Positions 1,587 through 63,120 are shown, numbered from the stretch's first letter. The stretch: 64,000 nucleotides of DNA from Cocleimonas sp. (GCA_021647365.1 JAKIUW010000008.1:19070-83069); one strand, 5' to 3'. The notes: generated from the sequence alone by a model not told the origin. Program-made: numbers and translations.

Positions 1587-1613
1587 ATCATGTAAAACTA
1601 GGGGGGTGTGCTT
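1587..1613 (+). repeat. G-tract repeat copy 1 (CTA subtype, forward)
   Basis: atcatgtaaaactaggggggtgtgctt, 31 nt after the htpG stop. Confidence 0.9.
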
Positions 1614-1639
1614 CATAATAGGAATCACACCCCTTTTTT
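1603..1639 (+). terminator. htpG intrinsic terminator built from a repeat core
   Basis: ggggtgtg (1603-1610, repeat core) pairs with cacacccc (1626-1633), followed by TTTTTT. Confidence 0.6.
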
Positions 1640-1673
1640 ATTTAATTCCACTCAGTACAGTTGAAGCTAAGTT

Positions 1674-2468
1674 ATGAACATTTATCAATCTGCACATCAT
1701 TGTTTAATGCTCAACGACGTTGCTAAAAAGCGAACTTGTGTGGATGCCTTATATAAGGCTTGGAAGAATAAAGAAGTTACGCGGGATGATTATGATCTTG
1801 TGAGTATAGAAACCCCCGGTCGCCCAAGCAAGCCAGAGCTTATAGATCCTTTGTTGTTAAAGCGTCGCAAGCTTGGTTCAGAAACGGGTCGCGCTATGTT
1901 GATTCACGCTATCGCGCATATCGAATTTAATGCAATAAACTTAGCGCTGGATGCGGTGTATCGCTTTCGTGATATGCCCGATCAATATTACAGTGACTGG
2001 CTCAAAGTAGCCTCAGAAGAGGCGTATCATTTTTCATTACTCGATGAACGCTTAAAAAGTCTGGGCTATAACTATGGCAATTTCCCCGCGCATAATGGCT
2101 TATGGGAAATGGTTTTAAAAACGGACCACGATGTCATGATACGCATGGCGCTCGTGCCACGCGTACTTGAGGCGCGTGGTTTGGATGTGACTCCAGGGAT
2201 GATGGAACGTTTGGCAAAAGTAGGTGATCACGAGACAGTTGACATACTAAAAGTTATATTACGTGATGAAATAGGACATGTGGCAATAGGTTCGTACTGG
2301 TTCAAACATTGCTGTGAATCTTTCAAAATAAACCCAGAACAAACCTTTCGTGACTTGTTGGTTGAATACATGGGCGGCGGGATACGCGGACCGTTTTATA
2401 TGGAAGGGCGTTTGCTTGCAGGGTTTAGCCAAGAAGAGATGGATGATCTGGTTGCTATGATGGCTTAG
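1674..2468 (+). CDS. Ferritin-like DUF455 family protein
   Basis: 264 aa with the DUF455-type pattern (AIAHIEFNAINLALDA, SEEAYHF, PRVLEARGLDV, RDEIGHV). Confidence 0.72.
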   Translation: MNIYQSAHHCLMLNDVAKKRTCVDALYKAWKNKEVTRDDYDLVSIETPGRPSKPELIDPLLLKRRKLGSETGRAMLIHAIAHIEFNAINLALDAVYRFRDMPDQYYSDWLKVASEEAYHFSLLDERLKSLGYNYGNFPAHNGLWEMVLKTDHDVMIRMALVPRVLEARGLDVTPGMMERLAKVGDHETVDILKVILRDEIGHVAIGSYWFKHCCESFKINPEQTFRDLLVEYMGGGIRGPFYMEGRLLAGFSQEEMDDLVAMMA

Positions 2469-2487
2469 TGGTTTCTTCTACTCCCTC

Positions 2488-2516
2488 CATCATGTAAAAC
2501 TAGGGGGGTGTGCTTT
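2488..2516 (+). repeat. G-tract repeat copy 2 (CTA, forward)
   Basis: catcatgtaaaactaggggggtgtgcttt, between convergent stops at 2468 and 2528. Confidence 0.9.
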
Positions 2517-2527
2517 TTATCATAATG

Positions 2528-3274
2528 TTATAAATCAAACTCAATCTGAAGTCCTAAGTGGTCAGATGAGCGTTCATTAATTCCTGCGACTTTTTCTTTG
2601 CCAAAAGTTGTAAAGCTTTTTATGCTATTTTCGTTGCCTAAGCCTTGATGCCACACACGATCGTAGCGGGCTTTGTATTGATTAATTTGCCATGTGCTTT
2701 TGTGTTTTTTGGCTGAGCCTGTTGTCTCCCATGCATCTTTTACAGACTTCACAACTTCAGGCTCTAGATTTTGCCATTCTGATTTCCTCAAATTGGTATC
2801 ACCTGCAAAAATGATGGCGTCTTGGTGATTGTTCATTATGTCTAATATTTGTTTGGCTTGATCAACACGCATGGATGCGCCAGGTTTTTGGCTTTCTAAA
2901 TGTGCTGTCATGATAGTTAAGCCTTCAATGCTAAGTGTTGATAAGCCTCTGCCTTGATCGCTGTATGAGAATTTTTCGTAGTGAGTTTCAATAACAGGGT
3001 GACGTGTGGCGATGACTTCAAAATAGGAACGCTCTGTCGGCGCATCAGGAAACAAGGTAAATCCTGCCGCCGTTAAATGCGGGACGAGATGTGCGTGAAA
3101 AGTGCGCTCAACCACTTCTTGTAATAGCACAATATCAGGCATATTGGGTTTAAAGTCGGGTATTACCGCTTTTTCAATCGGCGCGCCAAGGAGTAGATGA
3201 AACATGGCGGCTTCGGTGCGCATGTCGAGATGTTCATCTTCTAAACCGTTGAGATTCCATGTAACAAGATTCAT
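2528..3274 (-). CDS. Endonuclease/exonuclease/phosphatase (EEP) family protein
   Basis: N-terminal WNLNG and C-terminal SDHLGL motifs of the EEP fold. Start moved to ATG at 3274 (MNLVTWNLNG), 10 nt after the upstream stop; the longer ORF would overlap the upstream gene. Confidence 0.72.
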   Translation of the reverse strand: MNLVTWNLNGLEDEHLDMRTEAAMFHLLLGAPIEKAVIPDFKPNMPDIVLLQEVVERTFHAHLVPHLTAAGFTLFPDAPTERSYFEVIATRHPVIETHYEKFSYSDQGRGLSTLSIEGLTIMTAHLESQKPGASMRVDQAKQILDIMNNHQDAIIFAGDTNLRKSEWQNLEPEVVKSVKDAWETTGSAKKHKSTWQINQYKARYDRVWHQGLGNENSIKSFTTFGKEKVAGINERSSDHLGLQIEFDL

Positions 3275-3284
3275 ATAATAAAAA

Positions 3285-4133
3285 TCACCGAACAGGGCGA
3301 GTAACAATATCAGCGCGAATGGCTTTAGAGAAGTCTTTGGCATCTTCTGAGGCGCGTGCAATTTCACTAATATCAAAATGCTCGCGCGCTTCTTTATACG
3401 GTAGGTGTGTGTCGATCATATTGAGTCTGTAAGCAATCTTGTCGATGTCTTCAGGAATCAGATAACGATAATCCCAGAGGGGAATGGGTTTATCTGAAAA
3501 GCGCTTTGTATGTTTTACTATATTGGTGGTGCAGTTATTCCAAATGGTATTGTAAAACTCAGGCTCTTTGCCAAGTTTATTAGCACGTTTTAGCATGTCG
3601 AGAAAAACAGCTTGAACACGTTTTTTTTCTGTTTGGATGGGAAATAAACGCACGGTAGCGCCAATAGTATTGGTGCGTACCTTGATCACATCGCTTTCAT
3701 CGGCAATCACATACATCATTTCAAATTGACGGAAGAAGGCTTTCACTGCATTAAAACGCGTGCCTTTTTTACGCCGAACTTCAATGGAAATGGCAAGGTA
3801 AGTGCCATCTTTTAAACCAAAGGATACAAAAGTATGCGCTACGCCAAAAGAACCAAAAGGAGAAATCACCAGCCAAGCAGATTCCACATCTTCAAGCTTA
3901 ATGGTGCGGTCATAAAAATTAAGATCAAAGTCGCGGGTGGTGCGATAATTAATATCGCGAATATTGTTGATGCGAATCTTGCCTTTATCCATAAAATGAA
4001 TGGAAGGCATGACCGCTTGGTCGGGCGACCAGTTACGAGAGAGTGAAGGGTTGGTGATAAAATAAAAGAGTATTCCGCCAACCAATATGATAGCGAACAG
4101 TATTAAAATCCCAACTAGAATTGTCTCTCCCAT
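3285..4133 (-). CDS. DUF4105 (Lnb N-terminal periplasmic domain) membrane-anchored protein
   Basis: N-terminal TM helix, then the DUF4105-like pattern (INNIRDINY, HTFVSFGL, SIEVRRKKG, YNTIWNNCTTN). Confidence 0.7.
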   Translation of the reverse strand: MGETILVGILILFAIILVGGILFYFITNPSLSRNWSPDQAVMPSIHFMDKGKIRINNIRDINYRTTRDFDLNFYDRTIKLEDVESAWLVISPFGSFGVAHTFVSFGLKDGTYLAISIEVRRKKGTRFNAVKAFFRQFEMMYVIADESDVIKVRTNTIGATVRLFPIQTEKKRVQAVFLDMLKRANKLGKEPEFYNTIWNNCTTNIVKHTKRFSDKPIPLWDYRYLIPEDIDKIAYRLNMIDTHLPYKEAREHFDISEIARASEDAKDFSKAIRADIVTRPVR

Positions 4134-4194: not shown

Positions 4195-4220
4195 ATCATG
4201 TAAAAGTGGGGGGGGTGTGG
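4195..4220 (+). repeat. G-tract repeat copy 3 (GTG, forward, G8 tract)
   Basis: atcatgtaaaagtggggggggtgtgg. Confidence 0.88.
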
Positions 4221-4233
4221 ATTTTCTTTAGTA

Positions 4234-4325: not shown

Positions 4326-5657
4326 TTATTCAAATTCCATAGCTCTATAAATACGCCCCGCATTTTGCAAGGCAAGCTCATTAAAAGTATCCAAATGAGA
4401 GTAGTCTGATTGATCAATCTTGTAAGCTTCTTGTTCGCTACCATCATCTTCAAGAATTTTAGCCACTTGCTCGCGCATATAAACGAGATAATCCTTGGTG
4501 TATTTTGTTAGTTCGCCCATATCCGTGGTGGGAGCGCCATGACCGGGGATGACAATCTCAGGCTTGAGCGCTTCAAAGGCATCCCAAGTTTTAATCCAGC
4601 CTTCGGTATCGGTATGTTCCATGACGGGTAGTAGTCGTTGGCGGAAGGCTAAATCGCCTGAAATCATCAGTTTCTTTTTAGGTAGCCAGAGTGAAATGTC
4701 ACCTGGGCTATGTGCAGGCCCTAGGCGTAATAGCACGATATGTTCGCCACCCAGTTCAATCTCCATCTTATCTTCGAAAGTTTTATCAGCATAAGCGAGT
4801 GTGGTGTATTGAGATTTATCACGACGACCACGTTGCATCCGCTCTATTATTTGATCTCCATGTGCTTTCATCTCTTCAAGTGCATCAACGTGTGCGATAA
4901 CAGTTGCGCCTTGTTCTTGCCAGTAGTTTGTGCCGAGCATGGCGTGACCTTGGGCATTCTCCAATACAATATATTTTACAGGTTGATCGGTGATTTTTTT
5001 GATCTCTGTATGCAGGGCTTGAGCGAGTAAATAATTATCCCCAGCATTAAAAACCAGCACGCCTGATTTAGTAACAATAAAGGATAAATTGTTATTGTGG
5101 CCTGAGTTGGCATAAGTCGCTGGTGCCGTTGCACCAATAGCCGAGTAGACATTATCTTTTACCAGAACTGGCAAACTGTAGAGCATTGACTCAGGCGCTT
5201 TATCTGTGTGATTGATGGGCAGTTTCAATTCTTGCCATTTATTATAACCATCCGCGTAGTTTTTCACATTGGTATAGCCTAAATCCATCAGTGTTCGTGC
5301 TGCCAGTGGGCTGCGCTGATTTGTGCCGCAATAGACGATGATAGGCGTGTCTTTGGTTTTTACATGGCTTGCAACATCAAACTCCAACCAGCCACGTGGA
5401 ATATTGACATGTTCATCGGCATCAATCGAACCACCGATAAAATCAACCTCATTGGCGGTGCGTACATCGATTAATTCAATTTTAGGATTCTTTTTTAAGA
5501 GTGCTTGAAGCTCAGCTGTGTTGATATTGTTAATGGATTTATTGGCATCTTGAATGGCTTTTTCGCCAGCAGTTTGGGGTGGTTCTGCATGGCTGAATGT
5601 TGGTATTAGCATCGCTATGAATAAGGCATGTAAAAGTGGGGGGGTGTGAATTCTCAT
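4326..5657 (-). CDS. Secreted rhodanese domain + metallo-beta-lactamase-fold fusion protein
   Basis: Signal-peptide-like N-terminus ending FSHA, rhodanese loop VYCGTNQRS, C-terminal MBL-fold region (PGHGAPT). AGGAA lies 4 nt upstream of ATG 5657. Codons 4-10 are encoded by a repeat copy. Confidence 0.72.
   Translation of the reverse strand: MRIHTPPLLHALFIAMLIPTFSHAEPPQTAGEKAIQDANKSINNINTAELQALLKKNPKIELIDVRTANEVDFIGGSIDADEHVNIPRGWLEFDVASHVKTKDTPIIVYCGTNQRSPLAARTLMDLGYTNVKNYADGYNKWQELKLPINHTDKAPESMLYSLPVLVKDNVYSAIGATAPATYANSGHNNNLSFIVTKSGVLVFNAGDNYLLAQALHTEIKKITDQPVKYIVLENAQGHAMLGTNYWQEQGATVIAHVDALEEMKAHGDQIIERMQRGRRDKSQYTTLAYADKTFEDKMEIELGGEHIVLLRLGPAHSPGDISLWLPKKKLMISGDLAFRQRLLPVMEHTDTEGWIKTWDAFEALKPEIVIPGHGAPTTDMGELTKYTKDYLVYMREQVAKILEDDGSEQEAYKIDQSDYSHLDTFNELALQNAGRIYRAMEFE
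5627..5648 (+). repeat. G-tract repeat copy 4 (GTG, forward), inside CDS 4326..5657
   Basis: catgtaaaagtgggggggtgtg. Read on the minus strand as HTPPLLH, codons 4-10. Confidence 0.9.
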
Positions 5658-5682: not shown

Positions 5683-7245
5683 TTAAACTTTACTATAGTC
5701 TAAAAGCTTATTGGCAAGTGATTCAATTGACATATTAGTTTGTGCGCAGGAGTTTGCAGGTTTTGAGTGCCATATAAAATAATCAGAATGATCATCGTTG
5801 TAATCAGTTTTTTGATAAATATCGGGCATACTGGGAATGTGATCGCCATAGAAACAGAGCGTAGTTTCTCTGCTTGATTGTCGGTAATTATCCGTCAATG
5901 CTTTGATCATTTTATCCGCGTTTTTTAAGTGGCGCAGGTAGACGGTTAGATCGTTTAGGCCCCCCAATTTTGTATCAGAATAATATGTGCTTTGTTCTTG
6001 TTTGTTTGTTTTCTCAAGATGCAATGGACCGTGATTTTCCATAGTAATCGCAAATATAAACAAAGGCTTATCGGTTATTTGTTTTGTGATTTCAAGTATT
6101 TTGTCGGTAACGGCTTGATCGGAAATATAAGGGCCGGATTTTGTCGCGCCGTCAAAACTGCCAATATCAATAAACTCATCAAAACCTAGTTTAGGGAAGA
6201 GTTTGTCGCGTCCAAAAAAAGAGGCAGGATGAGGGTGGATGCACACGCAATAGTAGCCTTGAGATTGCAATGCTGAGGCGATGGAGCTGACGGGCATCTG
6301 ATGAATAAATTGATAAGGGTAGTAGCGATACAAACCCATATCTTGATATTTTAGCCCTGTTAGAAATGAGAACTCAGAGCGCATGGTATTGGCACCCCAT
6401 GCAGGGACTTTCAGTTTGCCATATTGTGCAGACTCGGCGTTACAGGCATCAAAGTTTTTTAGAATATCGGTTTTAATGGATGGATGTAAACGGCGCGCAT
6501 CAAAAAAGGATTCGCTTTGGATAACGGTGATATTGGGTTTGTCTTTATCTTTATCGCTTAGACCTTTATTAAAATCTGAATCCATCATGTAAAAGTGGGG
6601 GGGTGTGCTTTCAGTATTCTTATTCTGAGTAAAGAACGGTGATGATTGTAATGTTTGCACTATCTGTTGCTTATGCTCTTTGCTTCTTGCTTGTACCGTG
6701 TATGTGACAAGCGTGTTGATCAAGCCGTAGCGGGCGTTGTCTTCTGCAGGGTTGGCAGAAAGTTTGAGTTTTTCAGCGCTGTTTTTGATAAAGAATCCAA
6801 TGCCGATAATAGCCAGCAGAGATAGAAAAATACGTTTGGCAGTAAACGCCATCGCAGGTTCTAGCGTTAGCACGGCAATAATCAGCCCGATGATGATAAT
6901 GGGTGCGATGATGACAGGGGCTAATCCCAAAAAAGGAAAGTATAAGCGCGGGTGCTTAAAGGCTTGGGAGAACATTGCAAAATCAGAAAATACTATTGGC
7001 TCTTTAAGCGCTTTGAATTTCGCATTGCTTACAGCAATCACAATAATGAAAAACACCACAAGCGCAATGCCTGAGAAAATAGGGCGTTGCACAATTAATG
7101 TCAGCACTATAAATAATATGCTGATGATAGAAGCTTGTAATATCAAGGTGTTATTGCTGAAAGTTGCTTCTTTAGGTTTGCTAAATCGTTCTAGCCAGAT
7201 CGAGGCTGTAATAGTGAAAAATAAGGCGAATATAAACGTTAGCAT
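5683..7245 (-). CDS. LTA-synthase/sulfatase-family membrane transferase
   Basis: About 5 N-terminal TM helices followed by a sulfatase-fold domain (ITVIQSESFFDARR, TMENHGP, YGDHIPS). A repeat copy is read in-frame in the linker. Confidence 0.75.
   Translation of the reverse strand: MLTFIFALFFTITASIWLERFSKPKEATFSNNTLILQASIISILFIVLTLIVQRPIFSGIALVVFFIIVIAVSNAKFKALKEPIVFSDFAMFSQAFKHPRLYFPFLGLAPVIIAPIIIIGLIIAVLTLEPAMAFTAKRIFLSLLAIIGIGFFIKNSAEKLKLSANPAEDNARYGLINTLVTYTVQARSKEHKQQIVQTLQSSPFFTQNKNTESTPPHFYMMDSDFNKGLSDKDKDKPNITVIQSESFFDARRLHPSIKTDILKNFDACNAESAQYGKLKVPAWGANTMRSEFSFLTGLKYQDMGLYRYYPYQFIHQMPVSSIASALQSQGYYCVCIHPHPASFFGRDKLFPKLGFDEFIDIGSFDGATKSGPYISDQAVTDKILEITKQITDKPLFIFAITMENHGPLHLEKTNKQEQSTYYSDTKLGGLNDLTVYLRHLKNADKMIKALTDNYRQSSRETTLCFYGDHIPSMPDIYQKTDYNDDHSDYFIWHSKPANSCAQTNMSIESLANKLLDYSKV
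6583..6611 (+). repeat. G-tract repeat copy 5 (GTG, forward), inside CDS 5683..7245
   Basis: catcatgtaaaagtgggggggtgtgcttt. Read on the minus strand as STPPHFYMM. Confidence 0.9.
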
Positions 7246-9421: not shown

Positions 9422-10297
9422 TTAAGCAAGTTCCTTGTGTTGATTAAGCGCTAGCTTGTCATGGACTTCCAAGACTTTTCGAACTTCAGGGTGAGGTCGT
9501 GTATTTCCAAAGCTTTTTAATAATTTGACGGCTGTTTTTGAAGCAGACTCCCTTTTATAGTTTCTTAACCATTTTTCAAAATCGTTGATTTTTCTGCGCT
9601 CAGATCGAGGATAACGGTTGGGTGGTCTTTCGATGTTGATACGCCAAGGTTTTGGTGTAAGCCGTGCTCTAAAGCATTGTTGCTGATGGCAAAGATGCTT
9701 ATAGAGTGGGTCAACTTCGAGCGCTGTAAATAGTTGCGACATTTCAGTTAAATCGTTCAACTTATCCATTGAGTAAATTCGATTAGTGATGACGAATCGA
9801 AGCCCAGCGAATGTTTCATAAACAATTATTGATAGCTTTGGATTGTCCTTTTGGTATTGTTCTATTTTGTTTATATAGAATGCTTTATCTTTATAAATAC
9901 GACCAAAAAGCCTGCCTAGAAACCCAGGTGGCTTTTCATCAATATCTACGTCACCAAACATGACTCTCTCAGTATTGAGGACAATTGCGCCGTAATTATT
10001 ACGTGTGAGAACGGCTAGCGTGCTTCCATCATCTGCTGATATTTCCTCAATTACTTCTTCTCTTATAAAGCCATATTCATAATCACTTTTGTCGGTGAAC
10101 TCACTTTTCACCAGTTTTTCAAATATTATTAGTCGCTCTTTAGCACGTTGCATCGCTGACTCGAGGCTTTCGTTTGAAGCCCCCCAGACGGTGAATGTAC
10201 TGTTTGGGTCAAGTGGCTTACCTGTGCGTGGATCAATTAAATATTTATCTGCACCCACTTTAGTTTCGATACTTTTCCAGTACTTTGCAAATTTCAT
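9422..10297 (-). CDS. Hypothetical protein (no family recognised)
   Basis: 291-aa ORF with coding-like composition and basic C-terminal third. Bounded by a repeat copy and the response-regulator gene. Confidence 0.55.
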   Translation of the reverse strand: MKFAKYWKSIETKVGADKYLIDPRTGKPLDPNSTFTVWGASNESLESAMQRAKERLIIFEKLVKSEFTDKSDYEYGFIREEVIEEISADDGSTLAVLTRNNYGAIVLNTERVMFGDVDIDEKPPGFLGRLFGRIYKDKAFYINKIEQYQKDNPKLSIIVYETFAGLRFVITNRIYSMDKLNDLTEMSQLFTALEVDPLYKHLCHQQQCFRARLTPKPWRINIERPPNRYPRSERRKINDFEKWLRNYKRESASKTAVKLLKSFGNTRPHPEVRKVLEVHDKLALNQHKELA

Positions 10298-10355: not shown

Positions 10356-10382
10356 CATCATGTAAAACTAGGGGGGTGTGCT
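10356..10382 (+). repeat. G-tract repeat copy 6 (CTA, forward)
   Basis: catcatgtaaaactaggggggtgtgct. Confidence 0.9.
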
Positions 10383-10397
10383 CGACAAGTTCTGCTT

Positions 10398-12438: not shown

Positions 12439-12575
12439 GGGATGATTTCTTCTTATTTTTTATAAAAAGATAAAAGATTTTTTTGCCACGGAGTCTGAGC
12501 AACGCGAGGCAATATTAGAGCGTAACGACACGGAAGAAAACAATAAACAAAGATAATAGATGTGCTCTTTATACG

Positions 12576-12603
12576 AAGCACACCCCCCCACTTTTACAGG
12601 ATG
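12576..12603 (-). repeat. G-tract repeat copy 7a (GTG, reverse), left arm of a pair
   Basis: aagcacacccccccacttttacaggatg. Confidence 0.88.
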
Positions 12604-12619
12604 TTTTTTAGCGACAAAA

Positions 12620-12647
12620 CATGCTGTAAAAGTGGGGGAGTGTGTTT
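12620..12647 (+). repeat. G-tract repeat copy 7b (GTG, forward, degenerate G5AG)
   Basis: catgctgtaaaagtgggggagtgtgttt. Confidence 0.8.
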
Positions 12648-12691
12648 CGATAGTTCTCAGCAGAACTGCTTTGAAGTCGTGGTAAATAAGC

Positions 12692-17576: not shown

Positions 17577-17606
17577 AAAAGCACACCCCCCTAGTTTTAC
17601 ATCATG
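17577..17606 (-). repeat. G-tract repeat copy 8a (CTA, reverse)
   Basis: aaaagcacacccccctagttttacatcatg. Shares catg with copy 8b. Confidence 0.88.
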
Positions 17607-17629
17607 AAAAACTAGGAGGGTGTGCTTTT
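17603..17629 (+). repeat. G-tract repeat copy 8b (CTA, forward, degenerate)
   Basis: catgaaaaactaggagggtgtgctttt. Confidence 0.8.
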
Positions 17630-21086: not shown

Positions 21087-21268
21087 GCTGTATTTTAAGA
21101 AAATAAAAATCCCTAGCTCGAATTTATGTGTAGCCTTGATGAATTCTAGCCGTCGTTAAATACCCGCTCAGAAAGCTAACAAATAGCACTTCTTGCCTCA
21201 ATTAATCTCGATACTTCTTTCGAAAGGTGTTCGATATGCTTTTTTACGCCTAGGGCGTGCTAAAAAGC

Positions 21269-21294
21269 CATGTAAAAGTGGGGGGGTGTGCTTT
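21269..21294 (+). repeat. G-tract repeat copy 9 (GTG, forward)
   Basis: catgtaaaagtgggggggtgtgcttt. Confidence 0.9.
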
Positions 21295-22311: not shown

Positions 22312-22338
22312 ATCATGTAAAAGTAGGGTGTGTGCTTT
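22312..22338 (+). repeat. G-tract repeat copy 10 (GTA, forward, tract interrupted)
   Basis: atcatgtaaaagtagggtgtgtgcttt. Confidence 0.8.
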
Positions 22339-24052: not shown

Positions 24053-24126
24053 AATAGTGGGGGATGGGTAATTTTAAAGGGGAGGATTCTAGCACGGATT
24101 AATCATTGGTTTACAAAGAAAGATGC

Positions 24127-24150
24127 CTTATAAGTGGGGGGGTGTGCTTT
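24127..24150 (+). repeat. G-tract repeat copy 11 (GTG, forward, 5' part degenerate)
   Basis: cttataagtgggggggtgtgcttt. Confidence 0.75.
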
Positions 24151-25031: not shown

Positions 25032-25058
25032 ATCATGTAAAAGTGGGGGGGTGTGCTT
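25032..25058 (+). repeat. G-tract repeat copy 12 (GTG, forward)
   Basis: atcatgtaaaagtgggggggtgtgctt. Confidence 0.9.
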
Positions 25059-25119
25059 ATAGTTTAGTTGAGCATATAATGTCCGCATATTTAAGAATTA
25101 ATTGAAGTAAAAACAAACT

Positions 25120-26826: not shown

Positions 26827-26841
26827 ATCATATAAAAGTGG
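26827..26841 (+). repeat. Truncated 5' half-copy of the G-tract repeat
   Basis: atcatataaaagtgg, directly abutting the palindrome. Confidence 0.5.
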
Positions 26842-26866
26842 TCATGTAAAAGTAGGGGGGTGTGAA
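26842..26866 (+). repeat. G-tract repeat copy 13a (GTA, forward), left arm of a perfect palindrome
   Basis: tcatgtaaaagtaggggggtgtgaa. Confidence 0.9.
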
Positions 26867-26891
26867 TTCACACCCCCCTACTTTTACATGA
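26867..26891 (-). repeat. G-tract repeat copy 13b (GTA, reverse), right arm of a perfect palindrome
   Basis: ttcacacccccctacttttacatga. Exact reverse complement of 13a, centred on gaattc. Confidence 0.9.
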
Positions 26892-26906
26892 CATAATCAG
26901 ATATAC

Positions 26907-26935
26907 AAAAAAGCCCCGCTAATGCGGGGCTTTTT
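26907..26935. terminator. Bidirectional intrinsic terminator between glnS and the csp gene
   Basis: A-run, agccccgc-taat-gcggggct, T-run. Confidence 0.8.
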
Positions 26936-28767: not shown

Positions 28768-28791
28768 ATCATGTAAAAGTGGGGGGGTGTG
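28768..28791 (+). repeat. G-tract repeat copy 14 (GTG, forward)
   Basis: atcatgtaaaagtgggggggtgtg. Confidence 0.9.
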
Positions 28792-28915
28792 ATTCTCCCT
28801 CTTTAGGCAAAGAGGGGAGCTACAGGCTCAATAAAAATAGTCTATATTAACTTGGTGCAAGTCCTATTAAAATGCTACTGATAAATTTAGCTGAGAGTTA
28901 CAGATAAAAGACAAC

Positions 28916-30187: not shown

Positions 30188-30215
30188 TTTTAAAACCTCC
30201 TGCAATAAGGAGTTG

Positions 30216-30241
30216 AAGCACCCCCCTAGTTTTACATGATG
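30216..30241 (-). repeat. G-tract repeat copy 15a (CTA, reverse, lacks CA)
   Basis: aagcacccccctagttttacatgatg. Confidence 0.85.
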
Positions 30242-30261
30242 TTTTCTTAACTAAGCAAAGT

Positions 30262-30289
30262 ATCATGTAAAACTAGGGGGGTGTGCTTT
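30262..30289 (+). repeat. G-tract repeat copy 15b (CTA, forward)
   Basis: atcatgtaaaactaggggggtgtgcttt. Confidence 0.9.
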
Positions 30290-31087: not shown

Positions 31088-31100
31088 AAGTGAAATAAGC

Positions 31101-31123
31101 CATGTAAAAGTGGGGGGGTGTGC
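31101..31123 (+). repeat. G-tract repeat copy 16 (GTG, forward)
   Basis: catgtaaaagtgggggggtgtgc. Confidence 0.9.
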
Positions 31124-31125
31124 CG

Positions 31126-31599
31126 TTAATCTACCCTAATTAATCTTGTATTACTTAGTTTATCCTGCAAAGCTAAGCGATCTTTATCAATAATTACCCA
31201 AACTAAACCCAGACCTAGCAAAGCAAAAACATAACGCTTTAGCGCGTGACCCCAATTCATTAAGCCGTAATCGTTTGTGACGGCTTTTACTTTCCAAACC
31301 TTCATACCAAGTGTTTGCCCGTGCTTTGTCCAGTAATGTCCGAAGTAGAAAAAGCTGATGAGCACCCAGAGGTTTTTAAGTATCAAGGTGGTTATGCTAT
31401 TGGTTGGAATAATGTTTATAGTTTCATCTTTGCTTATTTGCACTTGTTCAAGCGTGATGAGTTCTAAGTTAATAATGATTTGTTGAAGAAGGATGTAAGT
31501 AATCACCACAATGAAAAACAAGATCAAAATATCGTAAAAAATGGCAAGCAGTCGCTTTCCTAAGCTGGCATTTCCCATGCTGTAACTTTCCATTTCCAT
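31126..31599 (-). CDS. RDD-family membrane protein
   Basis: GKRLLAIFYDILILFF and GQTLGMKVWKVKAV patterns. The ATG at 31578 is an alternative start. Confidence 0.75.
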   Translation of the reverse strand: MEMESYSMGNASLGKRLLAIFYDILILFFIVVITYILLQQIIINLELITLEQVQISKDETINIIPTNSITTLILKNLWVLISFFYFGHYWTKHGQTLGMKVWKVKAVTNDYGLMNWGHALKRYVFALLGLGLVWVIIDKDRLALQDKLSNTRLIRVD

Positions 31600-37915: not shown

Positions 37916-37921
37916 TAAACA

Positions 37922-37948
37922 CTATGTAAAAGTGGGGGGGTGTGCTTT
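37922..37948 (+). repeat. G-tract repeat copy 17 (GTG, forward)
   Basis: ctatgtaaaagtgggggggtgtgcttt, 7 nt after the comEC stop. Confidence 0.88.
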
Positions 37949-40092: not shown

Positions 40093-40119
40093 ATCATTTA
40101 AAACTAGGGGGGTGTGCTT
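40093..40119 (+). repeat. G-tract repeat copy 18 (CTA, forward)
   Basis: atcatttaaaactaggggggtgtgctt. Ends immediately before the bolA stop codon at 40120. Confidence 0.85.
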
Positions 40120-40425
40120 CTACTTACCGCCACCACCACACTCAGGCGAATCAGCTACTTTGCCCGCTTTTTCAAAATACTCATCGGGTGTCATGGTATG
40201 CAAAGCTAGCGCGTGAATTTGTTGCAGCTCATCACTGAGTGCTGCGTTGATCATACGGTGGCGTGCGATGAGCATTTTTCCTTCAAAGTCTTTGCTTACT
40301 GCTGTTATTTTGTAGTGCGACTCGGTGGCAGGGCCGCTGTGCATAGTGCTTTCATTTTCAATTTCTAGCACTTCAAAATTGATTGCATCATTGAGTTTAT
40401 TTTCGATGGTGGTTTGCATGTTCAT
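40120..40425 (-). CDS. bolA: BolA-family protein
   Basis: 101 aa, HYKITAVSKDFEGK, RHRMINAAL, and IHALALHT motifs. Confidence 0.85.
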   Translation of the reverse strand: MNMQTTIENKLNDAINFEVLEIENESTMHSGPATESHYKITAVSKDFEGKMLIARHRMINAALSDELQQIHALALHTMTPDEYFEKAGKVADSPECGGGGK

Positions 40426-42186: not shown

Positions 42187-42216
42187 CATCATGTAAAAGT
42201 GGGGGGGTGTGCTTTT
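42187..42216 (+). repeat. G-tract repeat copy 19 (GTG, forward); supplies the gluQ C-terminus and stop
   Basis: catcatgtaaaagtgggggggtgtgctttt. Minus strand reads K-A-H-P-P-T-F-T-TGA. Confidence 0.9.
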
Positions 42217-43214
42217 AAATACTCTTTAGATAACGGTAAGGTCATCACTTTAGGAATATTCCTAGCATCCCAGTTCTGTAAAGCCCATTGCCACACATCA
42301 TTAAGCGATAAAAAATCATTAGTATTTGGTGGTTGTTGCCCTAAAAAGGCTAGTGCGAAAATCAGCGTAGCGCGTTTTTGATCAGCTGATATTTCAGGCG
42401 AAAGATTCTGTTTGCTAAGCTTTTTACCAGCATCATCAACCGCCACAGGGAAATGTAAGTAGCTAGGTTGTGAATATCCTAGTAATCGTTGTAAGTAGAT
42501 TTGTCGAGGTGTGTTATCAAATAAATCAGCGCCACGTACCACTTCGGTTATACCTTGCAGGGCATCATCAACCACTACTGCAAGTTGATATGCCCACAAG
42601 CCATCCGTGCGTTTTAGAATGAAATCTCCCACTTCTTTGTTTATATTTTGGCAAAGCTCTTGAGGGTTATTTGCAGACCCTGTAAAAGTGGGGGGGTGTG
42701 CTTCGACAGGCTCAGCAGAACTGCTTTCCGTATTGTTAACTTGGCACTGGTCGATAAAGCAAACAGGCTTGTCATCCGTCAATATACGAATACTGTGATG
42801 TTTAGCGTCTTGATTTTTCATTCCTTCTCGGCAAAATCCAGGGTAAATATAAGAATAGCTTCCTGTCGATGCCATTAAAGATTTACGCGTACAGCTACAG
42901 GGGTAAACAAGCTCGCCGAGCGTATCAAGTGCATCTTGGTAATACTTGGAACGCTGACTTTGATAGATGATTTCGCCATCCCATTCAAAGTCATAAGATT
43001 CTAGTGAGCTAATAATGGATTGTGCAGCGCCTTTTTGTTCGCGTTGTGTATCGACGTCTTCAATGCGCAGTAGCCATTGTCCGCTTTTAGTTTTAGCACT
43101 GAGATAGCTAGCCGTGGCGGCAATCAAAGACCCGAAATGAAGCGGACCTGTGGGGGAGGGGGCAAAACGCCCGATGGTTTTTGTAGGTGAGGTTGATGAT
43201 AAAGTGTCAGACAT
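42189..43214 (-). CDS. gluQ: Glutamyl-Q tRNA(Asp) synthetase
   Basis: GRFAPSPTGPLHFGS, RIEDVD, AYQLAVVVDD, EVVRGADL, and KLSKQN. Downstream of dksA as in E. coli. Carries one internal in-frame repeat copy and ends inside another. Confidence 0.9.
   Translation of the reverse strand: MSDTLSSTSPTKTIGRFAPSPTGPLHFGSLIAATASYLSAKTKSGQWLLRIEDVDTQREQKGAAQSIISSLESYDFEWDGEIIYQSQRSKYYQDALDTLGELVYPCSCTRKSLMASTGSYSYIYPGFCREGMKNQDAKHHSIRILTDDKPVCFIDQCQVNNTESSSAEPVEAHPPTFTGSANNPQELCQNINKEVGDFILKRTDGLWAYQLAVVVDDALQGITEVVRGADLFDNTPRQIYLQRLLGYSQPSYLHFPVAVDDAGKKLSKQNLSPEISADQKRATLIFALAFLGQQPPNTNDFLSLNDVWQWALQNWDARNIPKVMTLPLSKEYLKAHPPTFT
42679..42703 (+). repeat. G-tract repeat copy 20 (GTG, forward), in-frame inside gluQ
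   Basis: cctgtaaaagtgggggggtgtgctt. Minus strand reads E-A-H-P-P-T-F-T-G. Confidence 0.9.
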
Positions 43215-46420: not shown

Positions 46421-46448
46421 ATCATGTAAAACTAGGGGGGTGTGCTTT
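46421..46448 (+). repeat. G-tract repeat copy 21 (CTA, forward)
   Basis: atcatgtaaaactaggggggtgtgcttt. Confidence 0.9.
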
Positions 46449-46895: not shown

Positions 46896-46924
46896 CATCA
46901 TCTAAAAGTGGGGGGGTGTGCTTT
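46896..46924 (+). repeat. G-tract repeat copy 22 (GTG, forward)
   Basis: catcatctaaaagtgggggggtgtgcttt. Confidence 0.88.
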
Positions 46925-49237: not shown

Positions 49238-49267
49238 AAAAGCACACCCCCCCACTTTTACATGATG
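49238..49267 (-). repeat. G-tract repeat copy 23 (GTG, reverse); the only reverse singleton
   Basis: aaaagcacacccccccacttttacatgatg. A possible decayed forward partner lies at about 49275-49305 (atcatgt...aaaactag). Confidence 0.88.
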
Positions 49268-49444: not shown

Positions 49445-49476
49445 TTACATAGTTCTAGGAAGTCCCAGAACGTACT

Positions 49477-49502
49477 AAAACCCGCATTCTAGCGGGTTTT
49501 TT
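49477..49502 (+). terminator. Intrinsic terminator after tRNA-Ser
   Basis: aaaacccgc-attcta-gcgggtttt plus TT. Confidence 0.7.
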
Positions 49503-49552
49503 GTGCCTATCTATCCTTGTTTGCCCCAGCGCATCCCTTGATATACCCGCAA

Positions 49553-49918: not shown

Positions 49919-49920
49919 AT

Positions 49921-50887: not shown

Positions 50888-50968
50888 AAATAGTTTAACC
50901 ATTGCGACAAGACAAACAAATTACTGTGATGGTGAATATACATGCTATTTATTTTTAACTCGAAATAA

Positions 50969-51055
50969 TGGTGCCCAGGGCCGGAATCGAACCGGCACGG
51001 TGTTGCCACCGAGGGATTTTAAGTCCCTTGCGTCTACCAATTTCGCCACCTGGGC
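50969..51055 (-). tRNA. tRNA-Leu (UAA)
   Basis: 87-nt class II tRNA on the minus strand. Acceptor gcccagg/cctgggc, anticodon loop ctTAAaa, CCA encoded. Confidence 0.88.
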
Positions 51056-51150
51056 ATATTACTTAGATGGTCTTTTTAAATATCATTTACAAACAATTCA
51101 AAAAAAGGTAGACAATTTTAAACTGTGCAGTTGTCTGCGGTTGTAAATAA

Positions 51151-51224
51151 TGGAGGCTGAGCCCGGAATCGAACCGGGCTAGGCGGTTTTGCAAACCGCT
51201 GCATAACCTCTTTGCTACTCAGCC
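51151..51224 (-). tRNA. tRNA-Cys (GCA), canonical
   Basis: 74 nt. Acceptor ggctgag/ctcagcc, D-loop with GG, anticodon loop ttGCAaa, discriminator T + CCA. Closely resembles E. coli tRNA-Cys as I remember it. Confidence 0.88.
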
Positions 51225-51311
51225 CCACAAGGCGCGGAATAATAGCATCAAAGTTAAATATTAGGAAAGGATTTTACACGATTTATTTTGTACTAATAAA
51301 AAGCCCCTTCA

Positions 51312-51891
51312 AAGCATCTGTTTCGCTTTAAGAATCCTTTGTATTCTTTAGATGCCAGTGCTATTAATTTATCAATAAAGCTCTTTCCTTGGGCTTTACA
51401 CCAACCCTCTGCCGCGAATGTAAAGTTAAGTGTTGGTCTCAATCATGGCAACATGCTTCCTGAGTTTGTAGCGTTAAGTGATGGCAATGAAAACGATAGA
51501 ATCCAAGGACGGAAGTTTGATTTTCCCGCTGGTAGCATTGCAGCTTTTGATAAAACCTATCAGTTTTTAACTGAACAATTTTAAACTCTGTGCAGCTACA
51601 ATAACCTCGATCTATAAAGATCGTTGGCAAGTAGAATTGTTCTTTAAAGCGATCAAACAAAACCTCAAGATTCACGCCTTTGTGGGTGTTTCTCGCAATG
51701 CTGTTATGACACAGATATGGATTGCCATGATCACCTGTTTGTTATTAGCCTATGCTCGTCATAGTGCTCAAACAGGCTGGACTGTACAAAGGATATTAAG
51801 GGTAATTCAGCTCAATTTATTTGAGAGAAAGAGCCTGCGAGAAATTTTAATTCCTGATCCTCCTAGGCATAAAAAGGAGGTGCCTAGATGA
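51312..51891 (+). pseudogene. IS4-family DDE transposase remnant (N-terminally truncated, internal deletion)
   Basis: YSLDASAINLSIKLFPWA...VKLSVGLNH..LPEFVALSDG..FDK, then a break, then TSIYKDRWQVELFFKAIKQNLKI (the Y-2-R-3-E-6-K region). Confidence 0.75.
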
Positions 51892-51985
51892 GGTTTTCCT
51901 TTTGATGGGAAACTGTGGGACAGCAGTGGGGGGCTTTATATTATTCTTTTTTTCGTGTCTTTCAGTGTCTTACATGGCAAAATAA

Positions 51986-57928: not shown

Positions 57929-58801
57929 ATGAAAAAAGTACTTATTACAGGCGCAGACGGACAGCTAGGCTACGAGCTACAACGCACCGTGCTAGCAGGC
58001 TACGAATGTATCGCCACCGATAAAAATGCGTTAGATATTACCAATGCCGATGCGATTACAGCATTTGTCGCGAAAATAAAACCTGATGTCATCATCAACT
58101 CTGCCGCCTATACCGCGGTTGATAAAGCCGAAGAAGAAGTTGAGCTTGCAACTGCAATCAACACCACTGGCGCGGGGAATCTTGCCCAAGTGTGTAAAGA
58201 CAGCGATATACAATTTATGCAGATTTCGACTGATTTTGTGTTTGATGGCAAAGGCCACACGCCATATCCCGTCGATGCACCCGCACAACCTGATGGCATG
58301 TACGGCAAAACCAAGCAAGACGGTGATGATCAGGTTTTAAAAATACTGGGCGATAATGCGTTTATCATTCGTACCTCGTGGCTGTATTCGGCACACGGCA
58401 ATAACTTTGTAAAAACCATGTTACGTTTTATGGCTGAGCGCGAAGAGCTGGGCATCATAGCGGATCAAATCGGCACACCAACATGGGCAAACTCACTCGC
58501 ACAAGCGGTTTGGCAAGCGATTGAAAAGGACATTACAGGTATTCACCATTGGAGTGATGCAGGCGTGGCAAGTTGGTATGACTTTGCATACGCGATTATG
58601 GAAGAGGGCGTAGCGCTTGGACTTTTGGATAAACCCATTACGATCAACGCGATTACCACAGCAGACTACCCAACACCCGCCAGCCGACCTTGTTATAGCG
58701 TGATGGACAAAACGACAACATGGCAAGCGTTGGAAATGAAAAGCGAGCATTGGCGCGTGGCGTTACGACGAATGATGAGAGAACTGAAAGAACAAATGTA
58801 G
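57929..58801 (+). CDS. rfbD: dTDP-4-dehydrorhamnose reductase
   Basis: ITGADGQLG, NSAAYTAVDKAE, and YGKTK motifs. Confidence 0.92.
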   Translation: MKKVLITGADGQLGYELQRTVLAGYECIATDKNALDITNADAITAFVAKIKPDVIINSAAYTAVDKAEEEVELATAINTTGAGNLAQVCKDSDIQFMQISTDFVFDGKGHTPYPVDAPAQPDGMYGKTKQDGDDQVLKILGDNAFIIRTSWLYSAHGNNFVKTMLRFMAEREELGIIADQIGTPTWANSLAQAVWQAIEKDITGIHHWSDAGVASWYDFAYAIMEEGVALGLLDKPITINAITTADYPTPASRPCYSVMDKTTTWQALEMKSEHWRVALRRMMRELKEQM

Positions 58802-58802
58802 A

Positions 58803-58828
58803 CCACACCCCCCCACTTTTACATGATG
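58803..58828 (-). repeat. G-tract repeat copy 24a (GTG, reverse)
   Basis: ccacacccccccacttttacatgatg. Begins 2 nt after the rfbD stop. Confidence 0.88.
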
Positions 58829-58846
58829 TTTACTATAAATAACAAA

Positions 58847-58874
58847 CATCGTGTAAAAGTGGGGGGGTGTGCTT
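58847..58874 (+). repeat. G-tract repeat copy 24b (GTG, forward)
   Basis: catcgtgtaaaagtgggggggtgtgctt. Confidence 0.88.
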
Positions 58875-58899
58875 GTAGAATAATTAAACGAGCATAGAA

Positions 58900-60913: not shown

Positions 60914-60922
60914 ATAAACAAA

Positions 60923-60951
60923 CATCATGTAAAACTAGGGGGGTGTGCTTT
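60923..60951 (+). repeat. G-tract repeat copy 25 (CTA, forward)
   Basis: catcatgtaaaactaggggggtgtgcttt, 10 nt after the stop of the AbiC-like gene. Confidence 0.9.
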
Positions 60952-60982: not shown

Positions 60983-61453
60983 ATGTCTAAAACATTTAAC
61001 GACTTAATCGCAGATGCATTAACCGAGATAGATGAACTTTTTCCGTGGGACTTAGAAAAGCATTTAGAAAACCACCCAGAAACCTTATTGCTCGATATTC
61101 GTGAGCCTGATGAGTTTGAAGGCGCGCATCTTAAAAATTCCATCCACGTACCACGCGGTATTTTAGAACAAGCCTGCGAATGGGATTATGCCGAGACAGT
61201 TCCTGAATTAGTGAATGCGCGCGAACGTCCTGTATTAGTCATTTGCCGATCAGGCAATCGCAGTGTGTTAGCGGCATTAACGATGAAATTGCTCGGCTAT
61301 AAAAATTTAACATCATTAAAAATGGGTGTGAAAGGCTGTAATGATTCGGATATAGTTCTATACAATCAAGCGGGCGAAGAAGCAGACCCAGACTGGGTAG
61401 ATGAGTTTTTTAACCCACCTTTGAGAAATAATCAGTTATCGGCTAATCAATAG
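60983..61453 (+). CDS. Single-domain rhodanese-like sulfurtransferase
   Basis: Active-site loop CRSGNRS. Confidence 0.82.
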   Translation: MSKTFNDLIADALTEIDELFPWDLEKHLENHPETLLLDIREPDEFEGAHLKNSIHVPRGILEQACEWDYAETVPELVNARERPVLVICRSGNRSVLAALTMKLLGYKNLTSLKMGVKGCNDSDIVLYNQAGEEADPDWVDEFFNPPLRNNQLSANQ

Positions 61454-61479
61454 TTCTTATTTGTAGTAATACGCCACTG

Positions 61480-61502
61480 TTGGGCTTCGTGCCTCAGCCC
61501 AA
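61480..61502. repeat. ttgggct-tcgtgcctc-agcccaa hairpin repeat
   Basis: Sits between convergent genes (stops at 61453 and 61521). It is part of tgttgggcttcgtgcctcagcccaacctac, a repeat type I recall from other gammaproteobacterial genomes. Confidence 0.5.
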
Positions 61503-61520
61503 CCTACGGTTTAAGAAGAT

Positions 61521-62375
61521 TTAGCCCGTAGCAACAGGTCGCTGATCATCCCGAATCCACTCACTCCATGAACCTGCGTATAGCTTCGAGCCTGATAAGC
61601 CTGCTATTTCCATCGCTAACATATTATGACAAGCAGTTACGCCTGAACCACATAGGTGTACGATGTCTGTAGCAGACTGATTGGGTGTTTGTTTGATAAT
61701 AGTTGTAAACTGTTTTTGTAATTCATCAGCGCTTAAAAATAAGCCATCGTCACCAAGGTTTAGCTGAAAAGCACGATTGATTGAATCAGGGATTCGCCCA
61801 GCAACGGTATCGATAGGTTCGGATTCGCCACGGTAGCGCTCGGGGGTTCTGGCATCTAAAATGGTGAACGTTTGAGCTTCAATATTATGTAGAATTTGTT
61901 CAGTACTTAACGATGTGTTGTTATTGATGTTTGCAGTAAATATTTTGGGTGAAATTGTAGGAAGTTCTTGGCTTAACGATTTACCTTCTTTAATCCATTG
62001 TGGAATTCCACCATCAAGAATCGCAACTTTCTCGTGACCAAAAGTACGCAATTGCCACCATAGGCGAACGGCAAAAGCACCGCCTACATCGTCATAGGCA
62101 ATGACTTGGGTTTGATTGTCGACACCCCAATCTCCTAGCTTTTGAATAAACTCATCAAAATCAGGAAGAGGGTGTCTACCCGTGTTTTCGGTGATAGGCG
62201 AAGAAAGATCAGTTTCTAAACTACAGAAAATAGCGCTGGGGATGTGATCCTTTTGGTAGGCTTTTAAACCAGCTTCAGGGTTGAGTAGAGATGAGCGGCA
62301 ATCAAAGATTATCCAATCAGGTTTATGCAAGTTCTTTGCAAGGTCATCGATTGATATGAGTGCCGTATATGTCAT
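61521..62375 (-). CDS. sseA: 3-mercaptopyruvate/thiosulfate sulfurtransferase (tandem rhodanese)
   Basis: Two rhodanese domains with catalytic loop CGSGVTA. Collinear with my memory of E. coli SseA. Confidence 0.8.
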   Translation of the reverse strand: MTYTALISIDDLAKNLHKPDWIIFDCRSSLLNPEAGLKAYQKDHIPSAIFCSLETDLSSPITENTGRHPLPDFDEFIQKLGDWGVDNQTQVIAYDDVGGAFAVRLWWQLRTFGHEKVAILDGGIPQWIKEGKSLSQELPTISPKIFTANINNNTSLSTEQILHNIEAQTFTILDARTPERYRGESEPIDTVAGRIPDSINRAFQLNLGDDGLFLSADELQKQFTTIIKQTPNQSATDIVHLCGSGVTACHNMLAMEIAGLSGSKLYAGSWSEWIRDDQRPVATG

Positions 62376-62378
62376 CGT

Positions 62379-63062
62379 TTATTCAGCGTTTGATAGTCGA
62401 TCACCCGTCATTAATGGGTAACAGCGGTCATACCAAATTGCAAAATCTTTATTATGAGTCATCGCCATTTTTATAATGCCGAGTTTATGTCCTGAGCGTA
62501 AAACACCAAAAACGCTGCAATCAACAAAGCTGGCTTTATCACCGCCGTAAAATGTTTTGCCGTTTAATCCTTCTTTGACCCAATGATCAATCTGAGCAAG
62601 GTACTCGCCACGTGGGTCTTCAATATTGTGTTTTGCCTTCATTCTACGCGCTACTTTTGGCATGACCAAAGCGCCTATAAAAGGAACGATAAAACCTTTA
62701 AATCCACCACCAGTGGTAATTTTTTTAATGTTTTCACGAGATGTTTTAAAATCAGGGTGAATCAAAGCAGGCAAGAAATGAACGAGTTTATTATCAACCC
62801 AATCAGTCCACTTTTTATCGTCATCTGTGACAGGGAGTTTGGCGTAATTTTTATTGATGTATTCAATGATAGTGGCTGATTCGACAATAACTTCGTCCCC
62901 ATCTTTTAATACAGGCACTTTTTTATGCTCTGTTACGCCTTCTAATTCTTTCATTCCACGAGGTGAAACATCAACCACTTCGTAAGGAGTTTTCGAAAAG
63001 TTTAATAACGCGCGAACTTTGCTACAAAAAGGACAGCCTTGGAATTGGTAAAGTGTGATCAT
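62379..63062 (-). CDS. Glutaredoxin/GST-N-domain protein (CPFC)
   Basis: N-terminal LYQFQGCPFCSKVRALL and KVPVL patterns. PGES2/Grx2-like architecture. Confidence 0.65.
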   Translation of the reverse strand: MITLYQFQGCPFCSKVRALLNFSKTPYEVVDVSPRGMKELEGVTEHKKVPVLKDGDEVIVESATIIEYINKNYAKLPVTDDDKKWTDWVDNKLVHFLPALIHPDFKTSRENIKKITTGGGFKGFIVPFIGALVMPKVARRMKAKHNIEDPRGEYLAQIDHWVKEGLNGKTFYGGDKASFVDCSVFGVLRSGHKLGIIKMAMTHNKDFAIWYDRCYPLMTGDRLSNAE

Positions 63063-63090
63063 TGTTGTTCGATACGCCTCGATAATAAAG

Positions 63091-63120
63091 CATCATGTAA
63101 AAGTAGGGGGGTGTGCTTTT
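63091..63120 (+). repeat. G-tract repeat copy 26 (GTA, forward)
   Basis: catcatgtaaaagtaggggggtgtgctttt. Confidence 0.9.

Follow-up and report, generated by a model that had tools for sequence, protein, structure and literature searches.

A dense, non-palindromic repeat with a guanine-run core in a marine Cocleimonas genome, tentatively read as a mosaic repeat system copied in trans

The DNA analyzed here is a 64-kb stretch, referred to as the window, of the metagenome-assembled genome (MAG) GCA_021647365.1 from an uncultured marine Cocleimonas sp. (Thiotrichaceae). Scattered among its genes, at a density of one copy per 2.06 kb, is a short repeat built around a run of guanines. The original prediction, made from the sequence of the window, counted 31 copies plus one truncated half-copy, and this is matched by 30 full copies, one copy with a broken G-run (22312-22338) and one head-only fragment (26827-26841); its subtype counts at the variable positions (GTG 17, CTA 10, GTA 4) were exact. 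A 26-mer consensus with up to 3 mismatches gave 26 matches in the window compared to 0.00 expected from 100 dinucleotide-preserving shuffles, which bears out the claim that the repeat is far beyond chance, and the 19-nt core with up to 4 mismatches gave 30. A hidden Markov model (HMM) trained solely on copies from a different genome and then run on the window recovered the identical 30 copies as well as the decayed copy and the head-only fragment, with bimodal scores that leave the range from 3 to 14 bits empty. The window has 33 runs of at least six G; full copies contain 29 of them, and similar flanks are lacking around the remaining four. Together, the G-run census and the gap in HMM scores indicate that the family is all-or-none. 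Copies are spaced 0.5 to 9.5 kb apart with genes between them, so the repeat is, as had been stated, not a CRISPR array.

The repeat is not an artefact of one assembly, an outcome that would have counted against the original prediction, since it fills contigs of other Cocleimonas and Thiotrichaceae genomes. In another Cocleimonas MAG, ~78% identical in coding DNA, an exact 21-mer is found on at least 50 contigs, and the matches listed for the same 21-mer also include a Thiotrichaceae MAG. A scan of IMG/VR with the 21-mer gave 0 matches, the motif being absent from viral contigs. A second MAG of the host species (GCA_024280715.1, locus L140) is 99.75% identical to the window over 2.8 kb (771-3580), and both units in that stretch, including 2489..2516, are present in it. 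Five of the seven differences between the two MAGs cluster at 2643-2698, in the 3' part of an exo/endonuclease-phosphatase gene; none of the seven is adjacent to a unit, and hypermutation beside units was rejected on these near-identical MAGs. One canonical unit also lies on a 3.3-kb contig binned with a Lutibacter (Bacteroidota) MAG (L035, DQTL01000057.1), which is most likely mis-binned Cocleimonas DNA. Further comparisons draw on an incomplete sample of related loci (L001-L062 and further loci), ~450 kb of which entered a transposase survey. As the original prediction had it, no named family fits: no described repeat family or uptake sequence in Rfam or the literature matched, Rfam models run on the whole window at gathering scores reported only cspA and tRNAs and nothing on the repeat, and literature searches (sequence strings, Cocleimonas repeats, new uptake sequences) returned nothing relevant to it.

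Each unit consists of a head (ATCATG), a core (TAAAA[G/C]T[G/A]GGGGGGTGTG) and a tail (CTTT). When 92 single units from the window and the related MAG were aligned, a sharp rise and fall of information content delimited 28 nt, ATCATGTAAAAGTGGGGGGGTGTGCTTT, preceded by a weak AAAC. A second census was anchored on the G-run only, which avoids ascertainment bias elsewhere in the unit. In this census the core AAAA.T.(G6)TGT had 0 mismatches in 101 singles and 3 in 64 paired units, the head ATCATGT was mismatched in 3-17% and the tail GCTTT in 10-40%; one change within the G-run was seen in 3 of the 31 window units. Before the G-run, ~68% of units have GTGG or GTAG and ~30% have CTAG. The two variable positions are tightly linked (GG 98, CA 54, GA 23, CG 3; Fisher p = 2e-23), the pattern expected of copied subfamilies, and the sharp edges of the all-or-none copies indicate that these were inserted ready-made, as opposed to arising by point mutation. 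Single units lack secondary structure (~0 kcal/mol), which agrees with the earlier statement that one copy is not self-complementary and forms no classical hairpin of a repetitive extragenic palindromic (REP) sequence. A search for a hidden partner arm left 92 of 95 singles without a close downstream complement.

Ten of the window copies are arranged as five inverted pairs, giving 20 single and 5 paired sites; across all loci there are 92 singles and 37 pairs. Head-to-head pairs have offsets of 24 nt, where the heads overlap on ACAT(C/G)ATGT, or 46-50 nt, and tail-to-tail pairs are less common. Folding energies of the five window pairs are -23 to -32 kcal/mol (z -9 to -12). Both arms are of the same subtype in 30 of 37 pairs, compared to 41% expected (p = 6e-7), and this co-variation includes a rare CG/CG pair and a T-to-G change common to both arms of 12575-12648. 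Loop sequences vary from pair to pair and often contain a local palindrome, and the stem often runs into locus-unique sequence, which suggests that fold-back duplicated a single unit along with a few adjoining bases. The arms are inverted, as at the ends of miniature inverted-repeat transposable elements (MITEs), but there is no flanking direct duplication and most copies are solo.

The majority of copies follow the upstream gene closely, 0-30 nt beyond its stop codon and regardless of its strand, and the stop-codon positions described earlier for bolA, the VOC gene, gluQ and rfbD are true. The claim that nearly all copies are intergenic also stands (26 of 31); counted as full-copy sites, 21 of 25 are intergenic, only two of them between divergent genes, and ~16% of sites are in coding DNA. 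Four copies lie in or overlap a coding sequence, namely the gluQ interior, the gluQ stop, a 520-aa membrane sulfatase-like open reading frame (ORF) and the apparent signal-peptide start of ORF 4326-5657, and all three frames of the C-rich strand are used. Every ORF that lies between opposite units is a housekeeping gene by Pfam. The genes that flank the units are housekeeping genes, which means that an enzyme responsible for the repeat must act in trans.

A location this close to gene ends could point to a transcription terminator or another RNA-level element at gene 3' ends. The paired copies are indeed very stable hairpins, and the copy at 1587 has a pairing partner, a downstream CACACCCC with a T-run behind it. 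However, ~80% of the window sites are singles with zero folding energy and no downstream complement, and their orientation is independent of gene strand (relative to the upstream gene, ~6 are sense and 8-9 antisense). The interior of gluQ holds one conserved copy, genuine terminators adjoin some copies at exbD and cspA, and no copy matches Rfam. A terminator function of the family is very improbable on these data, and a terminator role for the pairs only is possible.

Other small modules are joined to the unit at fixed junctions. Two unrelated modules, of ~57 nt and ~47 nt, occur at the head/core junction, between CATG(TA) and AAAAG. The ~57-nt module (L054 10530-10589, L008 1583-1632, L046 2462-2505) contains a hairpin and is always at the same TA; GluQ-RS of L054 is 19 amino acids longer because of it, and it is missing from the close relative L143. 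At least 10 loci have the ~47-nt module. A 'body' of 75 nt that contains two hairpins is joined to the unit tail at a minimum of five loci (L054 11064-11154, L055 6527-6605, L051 3483-3569, L023 7678-7760, L005 1-65) and is absent from the window; the L023 body has a compensatory variant of the second hairpin. A tail extension, CGAYAG..CTCAGCAGAACTGCTTT, occurs at at least six loci, including window positions 12649 and 42705, and a composite subfamily at three loci, among them a remnant in L054, carries the unit without the C-run. Some additions to existing units are lineage-specific: those of the gluQ-internal unit in L054, the gluQ-stop unit in L142 and the tail extension of the gluQ-internal unit in the window. 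No module matched Rfam, and the body region of L054 had no match at E up to 1. Modules at fixed junctions indicate that both boundaries of the core have been repeatedly broken and joined.

The singles of the window are strongly co-oriented: all but one of the 20 are on the + strand (19:1; p = 4e-5). The mix of sense and antisense positions relative to the upstream gene shows that this bias does not follow transcription. GC skew is positive along the whole window, third-codon-position GC skew is positive for genes of both strands, canonical FtsK-orienting polar sequences (KOPS; GGGNAGGG) are distributed 8:1 (+:-), and GNAGGG is distributed 51:9 with units masked; these measures identify + as the leading strand and place the window within one replichore. 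G5 runs outside units are unskewed (~13:12). Orientation in the syntenic locus L054 is 5:1, and the bias in other loci is weaker, at 51:24 relative to local GC skew and 48:21 relative to the sign of GNAGGG (p ~0.002). Polarity is thus strong in this chromosomal region and moderate elsewhere, and that of the 64-kb window fits insertion bias and position-dependent selection alike.

Selection on orientation would be expected if the unit were a binding site for a host protein that polarizes or organizes the chromosome or acts in recombination or repair, comparable to architecture-imparting sequences (AIMS), Chi, KOPS or a nucleoid-architecture site. Such a site would explain why singles follow the leading strand and KOPS whatever the transcription, why the core is conserved at the DNA level even within a gene, and why polarity is stronger here than in scattered loci of another genome, as position-dependent selection predicts. 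We nevertheless consider it distinctly unlikely. Known polar signals are 5-8 nt long and mostly genic, whereas the unit specifies 22-28 nt and is intergenic; the G5 runs outside units show no skew; and linked subtypes, co-varying arms and inserted modules are left unexplained. The polarity could also be a side effect of a G-rich run interfering with FtsK in the wrong orientation. That the unit is KOPS itself was rejected, as canonical KOPS occurs separately and is itself skewed. A Xer/dif-like site, suggested by the length of 28 bp and an 8/11 match of the head to the XerD arm, was likewise dismissed, with no second arm or central region by eye, and inspection by eye gave no convincing match to IHF, CRP, DnaA or promoter consensus sequences.

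The four-fold degenerate sites of the window and L054/L055 are 59-60% identical (41% differing; Jukes-Cantor ~0.6); the nearest other species is ~16-20% diverged in coding DNA. The unit inside gluQ is at the same codon position in seven relatives (protein 74-82% identical) and absent from more distant ones. Its core is identical over 19-23 nt in five genomes, the flanking loop is unalignable and length-variable, and 19/19 identity has p = 4e-5 against a neutral identity of 0.59. The unit after comEC is identical to its L054 counterpart (16833) at 26 of 28 positions, all five window sites of the ligA-to-comEC block have a counterpart in L054, and a second syntenic block has three further spacers with units in common. 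The unit upstream of kdsB and its L146 ortholog have the same atypical head, which marks an old unit whose core is still intact. Taken together, these comparisons argue that the core is held constant by selection or overwriting and that the copies are not simply young.

Turnover is also evident at homologous sites. At the gluQ 3' end, a forward unit was gained at the stop codon in the L054 lineage. The exbD-msbA spacer holds an offset-24 CTA pair in the window, an offset-47 GTG pair in the homologous place in L146 and none in L144; a pair follows lpxK in L144 and L146 and not in the window; and in the HK-aas spacer L146 retains a + arm with only a decayed - arm. Orthologous units switch major subtype as a block, without scattered substitutions (10357 vs L144 2677; 46421 vs L054 6793), which looks like replacement by another copy.

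More distant relatives without the canonical unit carry related motifs, or 'dialects', at similar density. The dialect of L059 and L061 (glnS 76-79% identical) is AAAAAA-N5-CTATAAGTAGGGGGGTG(A/G), that of L060 is AAAWAAGTGGGGGGGGGTGCCA, and AAGT[A/G]GGGGGGTG is common to all. One L059/L061 dialect copy shares the channel-glnS spacer with window unit 25032, and both are found just past the stop codon. A lineage with gluQ 70% identical has no unit in 17.8 kb. Separately, L061 has a ~300-nt insertion (~9660-9960) in the channel-glnS spacer relative to L059 and the window.

Constancy at orthologous sites and dialects also bring to mind a DNA-uptake or self-recognition sequence like the DNA uptake sequence (DUS) or the uptake signal sequence (USS), where the competence machinery would prefer the core, and uptake and recombination would maintain and spread the motif. 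A near-invariant core, stable sites, dialects and discrete pair-spacing classes are traits of DUS and USS (PMC7811141, PMC3630211). The repeat has a comparable density (~1 per 2 kb), a near-invariant core with weaker flanks as in the USS layout, orthologous sites kept far above neutral even in the variable gluQ loop, related dialects, and, as for USS, inverted pairs at gene ends whose close spacings fall into discrete classes (PMC7811141). Its units sit between core housekeeping genes, and neither two foreign islands nor viral contigs contain the motif. Copying is indicated instead by the linked subtypes and co-varying arms, and 16-22 fixed positions in all-or-none, sharp-edged copies cannot arise by point mutation. 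Modules at fixed junctions are not explained by uptake either, and coding DNA holds only ~16% of sites. The two orientations of DUS and USS generally occur with about equal frequency, whereas singles are 19:1 on one strand in the window and about 70:30 in other loci. The window encodes comEC and a type IV pilin, which the original prediction took as a hint of uptake; we give these ordinary genes no weight as evidence for it, competence genes being near-universal. An uptake function therefore seems rather unlikely to us, and less likely again is its fuller form, a third and independently evolved family of uptake sequences, which would be found in marine Thiotrichaceae, be the first beyond Neisseriaceae and Pasteurellaceae, and have a long G-run core, lineage-specific dialects and replication polarity.

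The reading we prefer, to which we assign a probability of roughly 40%, is that the repeat is a REP-like mosaic repeat system, akin to bacterial interspersed mosaic elements (BIMEs), of one Cocleimonas clade, copied in trans and under constraint, with its function unproven. All-or-none copies, linked subtypes, co-varying arms, same-site replacement and fixed junctions show an origin by copying and insertion. The core would be the recognition or processing site of a sequence-specific, trans-acting DNA enzyme encoded elsewhere, probably in single copy, which might be a strand-transferase such as a REP-associated tyrosine transposase (RAYT)-like single-strand transposase. Ready-made copies would be pasted beside the head motif, mostly just past stop codons, and the copy at a site could be replaced by another. 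An enzyme that worked at the replication fork, on single-stranded DNA, would account for the co-orientation with the leading strand; a replication-coupled orientation bias is documented for IS200/IS605-type single-strand transposition (PMC6006769, PMC3971601). Inverted pairs would be secondary products of fold-back duplication, and other small modules would land at the same two junctions (head/core and tail end), yielding the mosaic. REP families similarly comprise singlets and inverted doublets with less conserved spacers and are targets of other insertion sequences (PMC3116915).

Several observations weigh against this reading. Recognition of REP by RAYT requires a hairpin (PMC6006769), and the single unit has none. 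Singles outnumber pairs and their core is no less conserved, which is the reverse of REPINs, the hairpin-forming REP doublets. No transposase, RAYT and IS200/IS605 included, was found in the window ORFs or in the ~450 kb of related loci surveyed, an incomplete sample, and phmmer with E. coli RayT gave no match among all ORFs of the window and L001-L062. No target-site duplication was seen, the compared species gave no clean pair of filled and empty sites at the ~16-20% coding divergence of the nearest one, and the two foreign-DNA islands carry no copy and so give no sign of current spread. In loci of the CAYOHT01 MAG polarity is ~70% and within-locus concordance is absent (19:24 by hand count); polarity may thus be a regional, selected feature instead of an insertion bias. 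Finally, a purely selfish element does not predict identical cores at orthologous sites where four-fold identity is 59%, so selection or overwriting must be added, and which of the two keeps the core is something that we can only infer. The three candidates offered by the original prediction, an element mobilized in trans, an uptake-type signal and a protein-binding site, are accordingly all still live and none is proven. Its interpretation is supported in part, and it had missed the inverted pairs, the co-orientation with the leading strand, the orthologous conservation, the dialects and the mosaic of modules.

Table 1. Repeat units, pairs and fragments in the window.
Feature	Position	Strand	Remarks
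Unit CTA, single	1587..1614	+	31 nt past htpG stop; terminator-like local hairpin
Unit CTA, single	2489..2516	+	Between convergent genes
Unit GTG, single	4195..4223	+	8-G run
Unit GTG, single	5625..5652	+	Overlaps apparent N-terminal signal-peptide codons of ORF 4326-5657 (-)
Unit GTG, single	6584..6611	+	In frame within 520-aa ORF 5683-7245 (-); encodes STPPHFYMM
Unit CTA, single	10357..10384	+	GTG unit in same spacer of L144 (2677)
Head-to-head pair, GTG/GTG	12575..12648		Arms 12575-12602 (-) and 12621-12648 (+); + arm with G-to-A in G-run; tail-extension module at 12649-12675
Head-to-head pair, CTA/CTA	17578..17628		Heads overlap, offset 24; + arm with two substitutions
Unit GTG, single	21267..21294	+	Ortholog L146 13473; atypical head common to both
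Decayed unit, GTA	22312..22338	+	Broken G-run GTAGGGTGTGTGCTTT
Unit GTG	24123..24150	+	Divergent spacer; atypical head TTATAAGT, resembles L059/L061 dialect
Unit GTG, single	25032..25059	+	9 nt past channel gene stop; L059/L061 dialect copy in same spacer
Head-only fragment ATCATATAAAAGTGG	26827..26841	+	Abuts pair 26841..26892
Tail-to-tail pair, GTA/GTA	26841..26892		Perfect 24-bp hairpin in glnS-cspA spacer; absent in L059 and L061
Unit GTG, single	28768..28795	+	
Head-to-head pair, CTA/CTA	30213..30289		Offset 50; - arm tail without TG
Unit GTG, single	31099..31126	+	Fills 38-nt spacer
Unit GTG, single	37921..37948	+	6 nt past comEC stop; ortholog L054 16833
Unit CTA, single	40093..40120	+	Abuts bolA stop
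Unit GTG, single	42188..42215	+	Provides last 8 codons of gluQ and TGA stop (KAHPPTFT*)
Unit GTG	42677..42704	+	In frame within gluQ (EAHPPTFTG); lineage-specific tail extension 42705-42730
Unit CTA, single	46421..46448	+	Abuts VOC gene stop
Unit GTG, single	46897..46924	+	
Unit GTG	49239..49266	-	Sole - strand single; 7 nt past lysR stop
Head-to-head pair, GTG/GTG	58800..58875		Offset 49; between rfbD and rfbB; -31 kcal/mol
Unit CTA, single	60924..60951	+	
Unit GTA, single	63092..63119	+	

Three neighbouring features of the window stand apart from the repeat. A decayed, mostly non-coding island (~49450-51950) adjoins the tRNA gene at 49355-49441; it contains an N-terminal fragment of a P4-type integrase, UvrD-like helicase fragments, an IS4-like transposase fragment and two - strand tRNA genes, and no repeat unit. 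Positions 26905-27303 (-) match the full length of the Rfam cspA thermoregulator (RF01766, 116.7 bits), and the downstream terminator is kept in L059 and L061. The type IV pilin at 20574-21086 has an unusually long basic leader, with ~21 residues ahead of the GFTLIE processing site.

Most of the very dense short repeats known so far belong to REP/RAYT systems or are uptake sequences, the latter in two bacterial families. The present repeat unites features of both, in that it originates by copy and paste and has dialects and conservation at the level of sites. Two uncommon traits come on top: the unit is not a palindrome, and it is strongly co-oriented with replication. Should a dedicated enzyme write and maintain the repeat, that enzyme would recognize ~20 nt of asymmetric DNA and be of mechanistic, possibly practical, interest; should the repeat be an uptake signal, one more lineage would join those with sequence-specific transformation. 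In practical terms, the repeat breaks short-read assemblies of these genomes, gives genes stop codons and short peptide insertions, and marks the Cocleimonas clade that carries it.

Among known systems, KOPS, Chi and AIMS are similarly G-rich and strongly co-oriented with the leading strand, but they are 5-8 nt long and mostly in coding DNA, whereas the repeat is 28 nt. Rickettsia palindromic elements resemble it in that in-frame gene insertions are retained, here in gluQ and the membrane sulfatase-like gene; they are 100-150 nt and palindromic, however, and coding insertions of the repeat are exceptional. Neisserial intergenic mosaic elements (NIMEs) with dRS3, and Correia MITEs, share with it mosaic intergenic arrays at gene ends, a short repeat that flanks or joins variable modules, and inverted-repeat forms of 50-150 nt. 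They differ in that no target-site duplication or transposase-linked terminal inverted repeat is shown here and solo units are the majority.

DUS and USS are alike in density, in an invariant core with weak flanks, in orthologous stability, in dialects, in spaced inverted pairs and in genic copies in tolerated frames. The specified length of the repeat is about twice theirs, and it is inserted-looking, with linked subtypes, mostly intergenic and strand-polar, in a taxon for which no uptake specificity has been described. An uptake motif is 9-12 nt long and can arise by point mutation, with a continuum of near-matches; the repeat specifies 22-28 nt, and its bimodal HMM scores leave no such continuum.

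REP sequences, REPINs and BIMEs are likewise short (20-35 nt), extragenic and very high in copy number, and on this scale 26 of 31 window copies are extragenic and dozens of related-MAG contigs carry the repeat. They also share singlets and hairpin-forming inverted doublets with less conserved spacers, within-genome subfamilies, lineage-specific sequences, mosaics with other motifs and use as landing sites for mobile DNA. The REP tetranucleotide GT[AG]G precedes the G-rich stretch in two thirds of units, the other third having CTAG, and only tail-to-tail pairs place it at the foot of a hairpin, where REP sequences have it. The repeat departs from the definition of REP in three ways: the unit is not a palindrome, singles dominate and are undecayed, and no RAYT was found among the ORFs of the window and L001-L062. 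We know of no REP for which strong co-orientation with replication is a described property. With no match found to a described repeat, we place this one with the dense interspersed bacterial repeats, among which its combination of traits is unusual.

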